A stretch of 50,248 bases of DNA from Patescibacteria group bacterium (GTDB taxonomy: Bacteria; Patescibacteriota; Patescibacteriia; SBBC01; CAIJZX01), in assembly GCA_038065275.1 (NCBI GenBank), contig JBBTRH010000009.1:1-50248 (forward strand), written 5' to 3'. This document shows, one piece after another, positions 40,650 to 50,248 of this stretch (position 1 is its first letter; each line of letters starts with the position of its first letter). The position numbers and the translations under genes were made by a program. The notes under the pieces are model-generated. The model had not been told where the DNA came from. It made no database searches and was given only the letters and a program-made list of their open reading frames with translations.

Positions 40650-40752
40650 TCACATAACGTATCGGGATAAAAGAAGTTTTGCGGAGTGAAACGGAGCAAA
40701 ATTTTGGTGAGGCACGAGCCGAGTGCCGAACCTTTTATCCCGTGTTAAGTGA
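40650..40752 (+). repeat. attC-like site W
   Basis: tcacatAAC gtatc gggataaaag ...loop... cttttatccc gt GTTaagtga. Confidence 0.7.
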
Positions 40753-40828
40753 CCCGACGACTGAAGGGAGAAGAGCGCAGCGGGGTAAGGCGTAGCGAAG
40801 TGGAGCCGCAAAGTTCAAGCCCGAGCCC

Positions 40829-41410
40829 TTACTTTATTATTAATTCGTTAGAATATGAAGTGCCTTGATATTTGTCAGCTTCAATCCAATCATTTATCCC
40901 ACCCCATAAATCTGCTTGAGATACAGTAAACGTATAGTAAACTAATTTTATACGGTATGTTCCTTCTTTCACTCGTACGCCATCATTACCTCTATATTGA
41001 TTCATTTGTTGAGACCAAGTGTTGATATACTCTTTTCCTGATTCTAGAGTTGTAGCACTATCAACCCATTTCGACGGAGGATCTTGCGGTGTTGGAGCAG
41101 CAATAAACATATTAAGACCTTGATCACTCCATTCATTTTTAGTCTTTTTTTCGATATAAGTCCTTGTCCAAGGTGATGAACCCGGACCAACAAAAATTAT
41201 TGATTTGTCCAAACCGTTAGACACAGTGAACTCAACAGCTTCACCTTTATTATACTCCATTTTGTTTGTTGAAATAGCCACCTTGCCAGATATTTTATTG
41301 TTTTCCTTTTGTTCATTTGTTGTGGGGGTAAATATTTGGAAAATTATGTATGCTCCACCAATAATAACGAGAGTTAGGATAGCAATTGAAAGGTAGTTTT
41401 TCATCTTCAT
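40829..41410 (-). CDS. Cassette ORF: hypothetical secreted/anchored protein (193 aa)
   Basis: N-terminal TM segment (LSIAILTLVIIGGAYIIF). Flanked by the inverted repeats aagttcaagcccgagccctta / taagggctcggacttgaatt. Confidence 0.6.
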   Translation of the reverse strand: MKMKNYLSIAILTLVIIGGAYIIFQIFTPTTNEQKENNKISGKVAISTNKMEYNKGEAVEFTVSNGLDKSIIFVGPGSSPWTRTYIEKKTKNEWSDQGLNMFIAAPTPQDPPSKWVDSATTLESGKEYINTWSQQMNQYRGNDGVRVKEGTYRIKLVYYTFTVSQADLWGGINDWIEADKYQGTSYSNELIIK

Positions 41411-41466
41411 ATCATTATTAAGATTAATATATTATATAAATTTATCTAAGGGCTCGGACTTGAATT

Positions 41467-41546
41467 TCACTTAACGTTCGCGTCTCATCCGCCGCGGACC
41501 CTGAGCGAAGTCGAAGGGGGAGTGGCGGATAGACGCTGTTGTGCGA
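41467..41546 (+). repeat. attC-like site X
   Basis: tcacttAAC gttcg cgtct-C-atccgcc ...loop... ggcggat-agacg ct GTTgtgcga. There is an extra C on the AAC side. Confidence 0.75.
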
Positions 41547-41567
41547 TTTTTCTCCGGCGATGTAGTG

Positions 41568-41846
41568 CTATGAACCATAGTTACATGACATCTCTCTATC
41601 AGGTGTATTGGGCGGGCTGCCGGTGGGAGTTCCGAAACAGCGACGCTCACCTATTGGTAGGCCAAAACACCTGTCAGTAAAGCCGTCAATATAGTTGTCA
41701 CGAACTGAAAAACCAATACACTGTCGCTGCCATGTATGCAGTCCATCAGAACAGACAGGACCACAGAGCGGCCCGCCCGATTCCTTAGGGAAAAAGATTA
41801 TCCCTATCAATATAACGCCCGCGAGAATGAGAATAACTTTTTTCAT
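41568..41846 (-). CDS. Cassette ORF: small Cys-rich secreted protein (92 aa)
   Basis: Signal-like MKKVILILAGVILIGIIFF and 8 Cys residues. Confidence 0.55.
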   Translation of the reverse strand: MKKVILILAGVILIGIIFFPKESGGPLCGPVCSDGLHTWQRQCIGFSVRDNYIDGFTDRCFGLPIGERRCFGTPTGSPPNTPDREMSCNYGS

Positions 41847-41886
41847 AATGGCCCCTGTTTTTTATGATGACTAGCCGGAGAAAATT

Positions 41887-41990
41887 TCGTACAACGTTTG
41901 CGCGTCATGCGCCGTCCGGAACGAGCGGGGCGGTATAATATCGTAACCGCCTAAGCGAGAGAAGGATGGCGTATACGCGCTGTTGTCCGA
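41887..41990 (+). repeat. attC-like site Y
   Basis: tcgtacAAC gtttg cgcgt-C-atgcgcc ...loop... ggcgtat-acgcg ct GTTgtccga. Confidence 0.75.
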
Positions 41991-42050
41991 TCGTACATTT
42001 TTATCTCTCAAAGAAAAGTTCCCGCGCTGTGCACGCCGAAGTTGATTTTT

Positions 42051-48084: not shown

Positions 48085-48092
48085 TGTTTCAC

Positions 48093-48557
48093 TCATTGCC
48101 AACCGTGTTCACTGTAAAAGGTTTTGTTTTTAATACCTTCGAGAGCCTGTCTGATGTATGGAATGATGTTGTCAGGCAGACTATCAAGATCAAACCATGA
48201 TAAATCATCACATTTATCTGGTTCTTTAATTTGAGGCTCACCTTGCCATTGTCGAGCAATAAAAAAGACATCAACTCGGTGATTATTTTCAGAATCGCGC
48301 GAATCCCTTTGCATGACATGAGCGACTTCCAAATCACCGGGCTTTAATATTATTCCCGCCTCTTCCATAGCTTCTCGGACGATGCATGACGTAAAAGTCT
48401 CACCTTCATTTACATGGCCGGCGACCATACTGTACTTACCATCTTCGTATCCTGTGTTGAAACGCCGGAGTAGAAGCACCTTGCCATCCTTCACTAATGT
48501 GAGATATGAAGCGGGAATGAGTTGATGTCTTTTTTTCTTTGCGTGATTACTAGTCAT
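48093..48557 (-). CDS. Cassette ORF: NUDIX hydrolase (154 aa)
   Basis: Nudix box AGHVNEGETFTSCIVREAMEEAGI. Confidence 0.85.
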   Translation of the reverse strand: MTSNHAKKKRHQLIPASYLTLVKDGKVLLLRRFNTGYEDGKYSMVAGHVNEGETFTSCIVREAMEEAGIILKPGDLEVAHVMQRDSRDSENNHRVDVFFIARQWQGEPQIKEPDKCDDLSWFDLDSLPDNIIPYIRQALEGIKNKTFYSEHGWQ

Positions 48558-48696
48558 GTTTGATTACTTGAGGCAATGAGTGAAATGGCGTACAACGTTT
48601 CGGGCTAGCCGAAGTTGCGTAGTCCGCGTGGCGGTACAATTTTACCACCGCCTAAGCGGACAAGCAATTTGGGTGAGCGAGTTATTTCTCTTTGTT

Positions 48697-48999
48697 TTAT
48701 GTGGCAAGTTCTAAGATTTTGACTTTGTTTTTCAAAACGCTTGACAGTTCTTCTTCCTGTACCGCCAAGTCAAAGCGGGACTGCAAGTTAAGCCAAAACT
48801 GCGGTGAAGTTCGAAAATACTTCCCTAAGCGAAGAGCGGTATCGGCACTAATCGCCCGCTCTCCATGGATAATCTCATTGATCCGGCGCGGGGCAACATC
48901 AACATCTTTTGCCAACCGGTATTGGCTGATGGCGAAAGGCTCCAAAAACTCTTCCATGAGTATCTCGCCCGGATGAATTGGTTGCATTTTTTTGGTCAT
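48697..48999 (-). CDS. higA: HigA-type antitoxin (HTH, Xre family)
   Basis: MQPIHPGEILMEEFLEPFAISQYRLAKDVDVAPRRINEIIHGERAISADTALRLGKYF is a classic HigA/VapI sequence. Confidence 0.88.
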   Translation of the reverse strand: MTKKMQPIHPGEILMEEFLEPFAISQYRLAKDVDVAPRRINEIIHGERAISADTALRLGKYFRTSPQFWLNLQSRFDLAVQEEELSSVLKNKVKILELAT

Positions 49000-49019
49000 A
49001 GTAATGTAGGTTATTCTCG

Positions 49020-49304
49020 TTAATGATGATAATCGACGATTTCTACTTCGTAAGCGTCACCCTGACGCCAGTTGAAACAAATTCTCCACTGGTCATTGAT
49101 GCGAATACTGTGTTGTCCGCGCCGGTTGCCCTTGAGTTTCTCCAGGCGATTCGCCCGGGGTACTCGTAAGTCTTGAATATTCAGGGCCGCATCGATCATC
49201 CAGAGTTTTCGCAAGGCAGTTCGTTGGATATCTGGAGGCAGTTTTGGCGAATATTCCCGGTTAAATATTCCAGCCGCTTCCTTTGATTTAAAGCTCTTTA
49301 TCAT
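49020..49304 (-). CDS. higB: HigB-type toxin (RelE/ParE superfamily, plasmid maintenance system killer)
   Basis: MIKSFKSKEAAGIFNREYSPKLPPDIQRTALRKLWMIDAA...LKGNRRGQHSIRINDQWRICF. The toxin lies upstream of the antitoxin, as in higBA. Confidence 0.88.
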   Translation of the reverse strand: MIKSFKSKEAAGIFNREYSPKLPPDIQRTALRKLWMIDAALNIQDLRVPRANRLEKLKGNRRGQHSIRINDQWRICFNWRQGDAYEVEIVDYHH

Positions 49305-49530
49305 GCGATAGGGGTATAATAACGTATTACAATAATACTGTCAAGCGTTAACAGTAGCAAGAAATAACTCGCTCACCGGTTAGCCCGTGTTAGCTGATGT
49401 ATTCCTTTTCTTTTCTTCTCTTGCTAAGAGAAGGCGGGGGGAAAAATCTTTCAAATTTTTCTTTGATCGGTCTCTCTACAATAATGAAGCGGGGTCCGAC
49501 CGATTGGCCGAACCCCATCACGATCCCCAT

Positions 49531-50004
49531 TCATTTCCAGGTACCAGCCATTCTGAAGAAGCTCAACTGTTCGTGAATGCGAGGTGCAATCTCACCTACA
49601 ACCCTCAGGAATTCAGGCAGTGCGTCCCGGACTGCCTTCGTGTACCAGGCAGGAAGGGTCAGGCGATACCCATCATAGGGGCCAGTGAATTTCCAAATGG
49701 TATGGCTTCCGGGTGTGATCAGTGTTCCAACCGTTATGACCCACATGCCCTCGACGTTATCGACATCGAGAGTACCAGACACCCCCGTTTCCAGGGGCTG
49801 ATCTCCTGGCAGGTGCGCAAGTCCCGTGTAAATACCATGTAGCGGGACTTGGAATACTCTGCTCTGCCTCTCCTTTACACGGAGCTTCCTCAGGAAAGGC
49901 ATCACGATCCCGAAAATCGCCTCAACCTCCCTCCGGTAACGATCGACATTCCCCGATCCACGGATGATTTGCTGGGTATCTTCTGGCGTGCAGTGTTCTT
50001 TCAC
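49531..50004 (-). CDS. Cassette ORF: hypothetical protein (157 aa)
   Basis: Long ORF with no motif recognised. Confidence 0.5.
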   Translation of the reverse strand: MKEHCTPEDTQQIIRGSGNVDRYRREVEAIFGIVMPFLRKLRVKERQSRVFQVPLHGIYTGLAHLPGDQPLETGVSGTLDVDNVEGMWVITVGTLITPGSHTIWKFTGPYDGYRLTLPAWYTKAVRDALPEFLRVVGEIAPRIHEQLSFFRMAGTWK

Positions 50005-50187
50005 AACTTCCTCCTGGTCCTGTCTCCAGGACGCCTCTCTCGAGTTGCGGAGTGTACATCAGCCGCTTTGGCCACACTTGGTCTACCACTAATAGATACT
50101 TGTTGTCAACATACCTTGGCTAAGAAAGAAATTTGAAGGATCTTTTACCCCCCTCGGGCAGTAGCCCGGAAAAAGAAAAGGAATATG

Positions 50188-50248
50188 TCAGCTAACTCGT
50201 TATTATGCGAACTGGGGCGGGTTGGCACCCTTATTATTGCATATTTTG
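50188..50248 (+). repeat. attC-like site K (left arm only; cut by window edge)
   Basis: tcagctAAC tcgtt... Its left 9-mer is the exact reverse complement of the GTTagctga that opens this cassette at 49389. Confidence 0.55.

Follow-up and report, generated by a model that had tools for sequence, protein, structure and literature searches.

A probable integron-like cassette array with mirrored hairpin sites and a dif-like insertion core in a contig of a Patescibacteria group bacterium

The DNA analysed here, referred to below as the window, is a stretch of 50,248 nucleotides (nt) forming positions 1 to 50,248 of contig JBBTRH010000009.1 from a Patescibacteria group bacterium (assembly GCA_038065275.1). 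Its right-hand part is probably a complete, integron-like array of 13 cassettes, of a kind belonging to candidate-phyla (Patescibacteria-type) bacteria, with one toxin-antitoxin module nested in a hairpin site and the insertion site at the right end. In integrons, the choice of strand at the cassette recombination site attC has been attributed to extrahelical bases read by the I2 domain, which is specific to the integrase IntI (Nivina 2016; Escudero 2016). In the array described here, the genes on the minus strand are normally oriented and the mirrored feature is the asymmetry of the sites, which is opposite to that of characterised integrons. We propose tentatively, with a confidence slightly short of even, that such arrays are candidate-phyla integrons built on Xer/dif hardware. 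In this proposal, one Xer-like recombinase lacking I2 would capture hairpin cassettes at a dif-like site, often located beside its own gene, and a bulge on the cleaved arm would replace the extrahelical bases both in strand choice and in blocking a second exchange. The system could be a surviving relative of the integron ancestor or an independent reinvention.

Downstream of gdhA (39312-40586; Pfam ELFV dehydrogenase), the G+C content drops from ~57% to 34-53%, and short open reading frames (ORFs) alternate regularly with imperfect palindromes. Of the 13 hairpin sites between 40656 and 49391, 12 (S0-S11) are intact and one (S12) is split. The order of the array is a hairpin followed by a cassette body, 13 times over, and then the insertion-site core. 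The features are as follows, with hairpins given from AAC to GTT and ORF lengths in amino acids (aa).

40647-40658, plus strand: outermost R arm, ATTTCACATAAC, beside the gdhA flank, of the same ATTTC-NNNN-AAC form as all other R arms
40656-40746, plus strand: hairpin S0, complete, at the distal end of the array, starting 70 nt past the gdhA stop at 40586
40829-41410, minus strand: cassette 1 ORF, 193 aa, without a Pfam match
41473-41540, plus strand: hairpin S1, TTC bulge and bulged C
41568-41846, minus strand: cassette 2 ORF, 92 aa
41893-41984, plus strand: hairpin S2, TTT bulge and bulged C, two G.T pairs
42051-43315, minus strand: cassette 3, two overlapping ORFs (42051-43193, 380 aa; 43190-43315, 41 aa)
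43436-43484, plus strand: hairpin S3 (repeat listing D4)
43577-43921, minus strand: cassette 4 ORF, 114 aa
44127-44175, plus strand: hairpin S4 (repeat listing D4)
44200-44619, minus strand: cassette 5 ORF, 139 aa
44644-44692, plus strand: hairpin S5 (repeat listing D4)
44771-44992, plus strand: cassette 6 ORF, 73 aa, inverted, with its own TTGACA (44712), AGGAGG and terminator-like hairpin (45013-45047)
45076-45124, plus strand: hairpin S6, TCC bulge and bulged C
45152-45541, minus strand: cassette 7 ORF, NUDIX hydrolase, 129 aa
45602-45766, plus strand: hairpin S7, long type, ~165 nt from AAC to GTT (repeat unit 173 nt), with a branched loop
45850-46053, plus strand: cassette 8 ORF, 67 aa, inverted, with its own TTGACA (45797) and AGGAGG
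46119-46173, plus strand: hairpin S8, TTC bulge and bulged C
46219-46689, minus strand: cassette 9 ORF, 156 aa
46798-46846, plus strand: hairpin S9, TCC bulge and bulged C, 91% identical to S6
46885-47127, minus strand: cassette 10 ORF, 80 aa, GTG start with GGAGGT upstream
47191-47355, plus strand: hairpin S10, long type, 86% identical to S7
47461-47955, plus strand: cassette 11 ORF, SLOG (LDcluster4), 164 aa, inverted, with its own TTGACA (47382) and AGGAGG
48032-48078, plus strand: hairpin S11
48093-48557, minus strand: cassette 12 ORF, NUDIX hydrolase, 154 aa
48594-48671, plus strand: 5' half of hairpin S12 (AAC GTTT CGGGCTAGCC) and its loop, which resembles the S2 loop
48672-49377, minus strand: HigB/HigA module inside S12, with a perfect 18-bp inverted repeat at its ends and a promoter-like site at 49344-49316
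49378-49391, plus strand: 3' half of hairpin S12 (GGTTAGCCCG T GTT)
49531-50004, minus strand: cassette 13 ORF, 157 aa, in the cassette adjoining the attI-like core
50183-50212, plus strand: attI-like, dif-like core, consisting of the cassette 13 R arm (ATATGTCAGCTAA), a putative crossover point AA/C at 50195/50196, and then TCGTTATTATGCGAAC
50233-50248, plus strand: second conserved block, ATTATTGCATATTTTG, which in related loci precedes the start codon of the recombinase by ~60 nt; the window ends here

On the plus strand, all sites share one layout: AAC, 4 nt and a stem, then a loop of 41-159 nt, and then the complementary stem, 1 nt and GTT. The intact sites were folded using DNA energy parameters, with AAC and GTT constrained to pair. 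The plus strand of every one of the 12 gave a C-G pair, a G.T pair and a 3-nt bulge (TTC, TTT, TCC or TAT) on the AAC arm, the opposite side being empty, and five sites (S1, S2, S6, S8 and S9) had an extra bulged C on the same arm. With the split site counted, all 13 carry three surplus bases on the plus-strand AAC-side arm. An earlier note on this DNA, made by eye from the letters, had described the AAC-side arm as the longer one in every site and had seen an extra C in five of them. Folding both strands, which it had suggested as a check, bore out both points: the spacers it read as 5 against 2 are 4 against 1, with the same difference of 3, and its five sites are those with the bulged C. 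When the core halves of the 13 sites were aligned, all 130 of 130 cells were paired. Double compensatory changes occurred in 24 cells, compared to 6.4 +/- 2.1 in shuffles (none of 500 shuffles reached 24), and were found at four of the six inner stem pairs. The sites are thus defined by structure, as are integron attC sites, with which they share the imperfect hairpin, the paired R and L boxes, the variable loop and the conservation of structure over sequence.

The two strands of a site are not equivalent. The plus-strand fold was the more stable in all 12 intact sites (sums of -250.5 vs. -198.5 kcal/mol), and it contained 13 G.T pairs in total, compared to one in the minus-strand folds. The G.T pair beside the core is kept without exception in all 13 sites, and in the minus-strand fold the position of the bulge is taken up by a C.A mismatch and a 1x4 loop. 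That the hairpins act as RNA terminators was also considered and was rejected, because in most cassettes the sense transcript would have C.A, a mismatch, in place of the invariant G.T. In attC sites, the extrahelical bases of the bottom strand lie on the arm opposite its 5'-AAC, and bottom strands are ~2 kcal/mol more stable and richer in G:T pairs (Nivina et al. 2016). Class 1 control sites were taken from plasmids R100 and CP080283, with orientation fixed by intI1 and the resistance genes. The bottom strand was more stable in three of three controls, and in attC_aadA1 a bulged G and T were found on the 3' arm of the bottom strand, i.e., opposite AAC. The rule from which the earlier note had argued was thus correctly applied, as it agrees with both Nivina et al. 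2016 and this control. In the window, the classical criteria are in conflict with each other: the position of the unpaired bases makes the plus strand top-like, whereas its stability and G.T pairs make it bottom-like.

The insertion-site core, ATTTC-NNNN-AA/C-TCGTTATTATGCGAAC, lies at the right end of the window. The last 52 bases (50197-50248) are ~80% identical to the stretch that separates first cassette and recombinase gene in locus L023, from a Kerfeldbacteria metagenome-assembled genome (MAG) whose name suggests ~58% G+C, and the attI region as a whole is closest to that locus. Ten recombinase-bearing loci of candidate-phyla bacteria (L023 and L026-L034) have this core in common: ATTTC-NNNN-AAC-TCGTTATTATGCGAAC is followed by a second block, ATTATTGCNTATTTT, and, ~100 bases on, by the start codon of a recombinase of ~273 aa. 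Because the window ends inside the second block, its own recombinase gene is expected just beyond 50248, with a start about 100 bases past the end. Between core and second block, at 50213-50232 and the equivalent positions elsewhere, there is a variable, G+C-rich stretch of 20 nt, which could form a small hairpin in several loci, and the relatives have a conserved GGTGGC...GCCAC hairpin just before the recombinase start codon.

The two ends of the array indicate how the cassettes are delimited. Cassette 13 has its body immediately next to the core (...CAGCTAA/C TCGTTATT...), with no hairpin between them, and the opposite end bears the complete hairpin S0, preceded on the gdhA side by the lone R arm at 40647-40658. 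A bare body at the core together with a complete hairpin at the far end means that each hairpin belongs with the body to its right, which in turn places the crossover at AA/C on the plus strand. The lone R arm would derive from the site in its original, empty state and have stayed behind at the array's distal end. The body ends conform to this division. All 13 bodies end in inverted repeats, the R arm being the inverted repeat of the body's own left end. The NNNN positions at the two ends of one body are complementary at 51 of 52 positions, while across a hairpin as it stands in the array the mean is only 1.7 of 4. In 25-nt end windows, matches average 19.4 within a body vs. 10.8 across a hairpin. 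No cassette is duplicated in the window, so the linkage was judged from this logic of the array ends and from one pair of related loci, L029 and L016, which have a site interior and the 130 nt to its right in common (93% identical) and differ in the left flank. Judged from the sequence, the plus strand is the putative recombined strand, that is, the bottom strand relative to attI and the genes, and its unpaired bases lie on its AAC arm.

Several details of the cassette ends were noted besides. The body-end repeats have a conserved two-base mismatch ten bases in from GTT/AAC (e.g., 45122-45146 and 45580-45604), with GA-TG-T on the left and GA-AA-T on the right, which would form a fixed 2x2 internal loop in the extended R stem of the circular form. 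In L023, the first cassette (4970-5515) has GAT...ATC in place of GTT...AAC at both ends (GATATATGATG and CATATATC); the core triplet is changed at its middle base, and the change is compensated.

Ten of the 13 cassettes and the HigB/HigA module, 13 ORFs in all, are coded on the minus strand, and the array consists mostly of single promoterless genes reading in one direction, away from attI. That the minus-strand ORFs are real genes, against the earlier note's alternative that they are non-coding, is indicated by Pfam-type matches with E values from 1e-7 to 2e-20: two NUDIX proteins (1e-18 and 1e-19), HigB (2e-20) and a HigA-like helix-turn-helix protein (1e-7). Three cassettes are coded on the plus strand, at 44771-44992, 45850-46053 and 47461-47955, the last being an SLOG LDcluster4 protein (1e-38). 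As had been pointed out previously, all three have AGGAGG and an upstream TTGACA; a sigma-70 consensus scan did not score these TTGACA sites as full promoters. A Shine-Dalgarno sequence was found in only two of the 13 minus-strand ORFs (46885-47127 and 49531-50004), and among 13 backbone genes checked, none had a full AGGAGG and two had short partial matches. The three plus-strand cassettes are thus inverted, self-sufficient units. No homologues of the cassette proteins were found in the other arrays fetched, and the two NUDIX proteins have no detectable similarity to each other.

The earlier note had recognised the prevalence of minus-strand ORFs, with both NUDIX genes among them, and the complete palindrome beside gdhA as the distal end of an array, and both observations stand. 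From the classical rule it had concluded that the plus strand is the top strand, with attI and intI to the left; the attI-like core lies at the right end instead. Of the two readings it offered, that most cassettes are carried antisense is rejected. The other, that the array recombines the opposite strand compared with known integrons, is upheld in a refined form: by the asymmetry of the sites the recombined strand is the "wrong" one, but relative to attI and the genes it is the ordinary bottom strand. The note would have given up its view if attI were found on the right and the longer arm proved wrongly assigned. The outcome is split: attI is on the right, but the assignment by eye was correct.

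With a search pattern made from four sites, arrays of the same type were retrieved from MAGs carrying the labels Kerfeldbacteria, Microgenomatus, Patescibacteria and others; of 19 genome matches, about half were chance hits without an array. Two of the loci found in this manner, L023 and L021, contain an IntI1 homologue. On the strand with the 4:1 spacer geometry, both have the array on the left and the recombinase gene on the right, reading away from it, with the cassette ORFs on the opposite strand. L026 and L027 came from a metagenome scan with the L023 stretch that aligns to the window end, and L028-L034 from a protein search with the L023 recombinase, followed by inspection of the context. 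In all ten recombinase-bearing loci, the recombinase gene adjoins the attI core and diverges from the cassettes, and of this arrangement the window holds the core and the second block. The direction of neighbouring genes was counted in seven of the ten, and genes running away from the recombinase numbered 8/8 in L023, 8/8 in L027, 4/4 in L028, 11/11 in L029, 2/2 in L030, 14/17 in L031 and 2/2 in L032. The bulge recurs in the sites of the related loci, where it lies on the strand with the recombinase downstream. None of the loci of four close homologues of the L023 recombinase (P0002-P0005) continues the window.

Two results on these relatives go beyond what the earlier note dealt with: the recombinases of the related arrays are without the integron-specific domain, and attI is dif-like. 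The recombinases beside the related arrays are 273-284 aa long and 31-40% identical to IntI1, and the region of IntI1 at ~198-250, which contains the additional domain (I2 helix, intI_Cterm), is all gaps in them. Archaeal integrons, on the other hand, retain the additional domain. Having no extra domains, the relatives' recombinases are of the Xer form. They score 210-221 bits against NF040815 (XerA-type; cutoff 220) and 179-206 bits, in two stretches, against TIGR02249 (integron integrase; cutoff 265). The nearest solved structures are Pyrococcus XerA (4a8e, 4e-39, one full-length stretch) and Vibrio IntI4 (2a3v, 2e-36, two stretches). The family is large, with more than 7900 matches having E values below 1e-20. 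The best 120 of these homologues come from Patescibacteria, are annotated as XerD or tyrosine recombinase, and are 61-100% identical and 245-318 aa long (most 270-295); the family is probably the "Cand" Xer-related subgroup of Smyshlyaev et al. 2021. In the window itself, a tblastn search with IntI1 found no recombinase, nor did a Pfam scan of the larger backbone ORFs find a recombinase domain, and no IntI-type gene was seen in ~20 related loci.

As to the dif resemblance, the core of the window (ATTTCNNNNAA-CTCGTTA-TTATGCGAAC) was compared with the bottom strand of Escherichia coli dif (ATTTAACATAA-TATACA-TTATGCGCACC), which is single-copy in 5220 of 5426 genomes. In sequence, the two arms of the core resemble the XerD and XerC arms of bacterial dif, and the R arm of every cassette is the XerD-like one. 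With two dif-like arms of ~11 bp and a central region within the 6-8 bp given in a review, the core has the form of a dif site, as a matter of resemblance only. The cumulative GC skew does not switch at the array (within 50 kb).

From the observed site geometry, cassette boundaries, core position and architecture of the related loci, a course for catalysis and single-strand exchange, and a role for the bulge, may be inferred by analogy with integrons and CTXphi. The plus strand of a site would fold, and a recombinase monomer on the R arm would cut the folded strand at AA/C. One strand would then be exchanged with the same position of the dif-like core, and the resulting junction would be resolved by replication, as in integrons and in CTXphi integration. 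The bulge would fall within the putative central region, which would then count seven bases on the cut strand against four opposite. It may have two jobs. One would be to restrict the proper substrate to the plus strand, given the C.A mismatch and 1x4 loop of the minus strand; the other would be to shorten the uncut side of the central region, making a second strand exchange impossible. Escudero et al. 2016 ascribe this blocking role to the extrahelical bases and the I2 domain.

A number of points weigh against this explanation of the array and its mechanism. The window comes to an end short of the recombinase gene, whose presence and presumed lack of I2 are therefore extrapolated from the sequences of relatives, and the strand exchange and replicative resolution proposed above are argued by analogy. 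In the array, the NNNN positions of the two R-arm halves are mostly non-pairing, which leaves the excision of neighbouring sites unexplained. The core would have a central region of 7 nt, compared to 6 in dif. The purine skew of the site interiors (GC skew +0.07, AT skew -0.03) is too weak for a strand call, and the HigB/HigA module inside S12 is not the product of a crossover at AA/C. Finally, L006 and L013 have a similar core without an adjacent recombinase gene, so that linkage of core and recombinase is frequent and not obligatory. (In these two loci, at reverse-strand positions 5713 and 4476, the array ends in AAC-TGGTTATTATGCGAAC and AAC-TGGTTTATATGCGAAA, respectively, and gyrA neighbours the L006 core.) This last point, with the likeness of the core to dif, also suits a different explanation, in which the array sits at the true dif of the chromosome and the cassettes are small elements like the integrative mobile elements exploiting Xer (IMEX), using the housekeeping Xer. 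There would then be no dedicated integron-type integrase, and the accumulation would be passive rather than an adaptive platform. In keeping with it, the recombinases form a very large and highly conserved family, assigned to a candidate-phyla Xer type (Smyshlyaev et al. 2021), housekeeping genes lie downstream of the recombinase, and in streptococci xerS likewise adjoins difSL (as reviewed). However, long ordered arrays (13 sites), covarying structure-defined sites, uniform gene orientation and cassette ends common to different genomes characterise an integron-type platform rather than sporadic IMEX insertions. We regard passive accumulation at dif as quite possible, if on balance doubtful, and it does not exclude the integron-like reading, since one enzyme could serve both.

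The remaining explanations are far weaker. That the array is a fossil, its sites and core being relics that no longer recombine, is improbable. Its recombination is inferred, and the sole second copy of any part of the array, a short contig from groundwater, keeps the same order; yet the stems are perfect, with compensatory changes, in all 13 sites, the body-end repeats are nearly perfect, and near-identical site types are found beside different neighbours from one genome to another. A classical IntI encoded elsewhere might instead recombine the minus strand in canonical geometry, the neighbouring Xer-like gene being a bystander, and the minus strand does have a bulged G and a longer spacer opposite its AAC, like classical bottom strands. 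This would require each hairpin to belong with the body to its left and attI to lie at the left end, both of which are contradicted; the minus strand is also the less stable in 12 of 12 sites, with a C.A mismatch beside the core, and the ~20 related loci showed no IntI-type gene. We consider it very unlikely. A plain classical integron, with the plus strand as top strand, attI and intI to the left and most cassettes antisense under their own promoters, is hardly credible at all. Although the extra bases do lie on the plus-strand AAC arm, as on top strands (Nivina et al. 2016), the left end is a complete hairpin by gdhA with no recombinase domain in the larger ORFs scanned, the attI-like core is at the right end, and the recombinase of related arrays is on the matching side. 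Moreover, it is the minus-strand ORFs that mostly lack promoter and Shine-Dalgarno signals, and the three plus-strand ORFs that have them.

With regard to the surroundings of the array, three tRNA genes on the plus strand (37258-38004) lie 2.6 kb upstream of it, followed by genes for a CsoR-like repressor and thioredoxin and by gdhA. An Rfam scan of 36000-50248 (E-value mode) had these tRNAs as its sole matches and gave no family matching the hairpin sites. Backbone genes (ClpP, RNase Y and a DHH protein) have 66-73% DNA identity with a Kerfeldbacteria contig. Along with the closeness of the attI region to L023 and the want of a full Shine-Dalgarno sequence in backbone genes, this indicates a host within Patescibacteria, probably one similar to Kerfeldbacteria. 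The groundwater contig, L001, is independent and 1.6 kb long; it is 99.9% identical over 47911-49494, with the same gene order, so this part of the window is no assembly artefact.

Some cassettes and sites have features of their own. Cassettes 4 and 13 (43485-44129 and 49392-50196) have ~70 nt in common at both ends, 78-96% identical, around unrelated ORFs of 114 and 157 aa. Together, these ends make up a long inverted repeat containing a small GC hairpin, and the same end module occurs in L023, L010, L015, L016 and L031. The long sites S7 and S10 each belong to an inverted, promoter-bearing plus-strand cassette (8 and 11), and near-identical copies (82-89%) occur in Kerfeldbacteria, Microgenomatus and FCPU426 MAGs. 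The HigB/HigA module sits between the loop and the 3' stem of S12, bounded by the inverted repeat arms GGTGAGCGAGTTATTTCT and AGAAATAACTCGCTCACC, an arrangement that is also present in L001. It looks as if a circular element with a loop-less palindromic site had been opened at the centre of the palindrome.

Among the related arrays, L029 (1-9900), L028 (60-2480) and L031 (1-9850) contain defence-type genes, namely GmrSD, two restriction-modification sets, SduA_C, T5orf172, HEPN_AbiU2 and HicAB, along with NUDIX genes and some multi-gene cassettes. Fic genes are carried by related arrays as well. The same site family was encountered in L004 (IMGVR_UViG_3300012964_000034, filed as viral) and in L016 and L017, from MAGs with the labels FCPU426 and Gammaproteobacteria; these occurrences reflect either a wider distribution or mis-binning.

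The choice of strand at attC keeps integron cassettes expressible, and here long, well-kept arrays have the mirrored geometry and a linked recombinase without I2. Under the definition of Cury et al. 2016, at least two attC sites without an IntI (matching both profiles) nearby make a cluster of attC sites lacking integron-integrases nearby (CALIN). The present array and its relatives would be filed as such, their linked recombinase being without intI_Cterm, yet an insertion site is present and, in the relatives, a linked recombinase. Tools that require the IntI-specific profile, e.g., IntegronFinder, would accordingly list these arrays as orphan clusters, and a strand-specific classical attC model is expected to call the sites on the wrong strand. 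If so, integron-like platforms of Patescibacteria, which make up a large share of bacterial diversity, are under-counted and their cassettes mis-oriented. In view of the defence, Fic and toxin-antitoxin genes in related arrays, these arrays may be a principal reservoir of defence and accessory genes among ultra-small bacteria. Given the dif-like site and a recombinase that stands between XerA and IntI, the proposed passage from Xer to integron can be put to the test with actual sequences. Escudero et al. 2016 framed as a paradox the question of whether attC or I2 arose first, and an integron on Xer/dif hardware, if true, would be a concrete answer to it. In the literature searched, coverage of which was incomplete, no description of cassette arrays with Xer-type recombinases in candidate phyla was found, and an earlier description is possible.

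When compared with known systems, the array is most readily set beside classical integrons (IntI1 with class 1 attC; VchIntIA with the Vibrio cholerae repeats, VCR). In common with these, it has structure-defined imperfect hairpins with an AAC/GTT core, a variable loop (40-165 nt) and covarying stems, a crossover that would fall at AA/C, a last cassette ending in a complete site, and a folded strand that is the more stable and rich in G.T pairs. The related loci share the recombinase gene divergent from an array of mostly single-gene, mostly promoterless cassettes, and toxin-antitoxin cassettes and inverted promoter-bearing cassettes are known from integrons too. The spacers are 4:1 here, giving a 3-nt bulge, whereas attC has a roughly symmetric unpaired spacer of 5-6 nt. 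Furthermore, the R arms extend to ATTTC-NNNN-AAC and beyond (9-70 nt), attI resembles dif, and the recombinases of related arrays lack the additional (I2) domain. The system works in an integron-like manner but departs from integrons in two defining features, i.e., the IntI additional domain (as judged from relatives) and the side of the extrahelical bases, the bulge and bulged C being on the AAC arm of the strand identified as recombined.

The only reaction that has been said to resemble cassette recombination is that of CTXphi (Escudero et al. 2016), whose attP(+) inserts at dif1 through XerCD in the manner of an IMEX. There, a folded single strand mimics an Xer site, one strand is exchanged and replication resolves the product, which is the course suggested here by analogy; the enzyme has no I2-like domain, and tandem piling at dif is possible. 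Unlike the gene-sized cassettes of the window, CTXphi is a phage genome, with neither a dozen-site array nor uniform gene orientation, and it uses XerC and XerD, compared to the single recombinase beside related arrays. The single-recombinase modules XerS/difSL, XerH/difH and archaeal XerA/dif likewise have a recombinase of ~270-360 aa beside its own site; the family model that best fits the recombinases of the related arrays is NF040815, at about its cutoff, and their nearest solved structure is XerA. The sites of those modules, however, are single chromosomal dimer-resolution sites, for which cassette arrays and hairpin sites have not been described. The pdif modules of Acinetobacter plasmids are also tandem gene modules bracketed by inverted Xer-type arms, but their sites are conserved double-stranded 28-bp XerC/D sites in alternating orientation. 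In the present array, the inner arms vary and covary within each site, and the spacers are 4 vs. 1; since such covariation requires pairing within one strand, the sites differ in kind from pdif.

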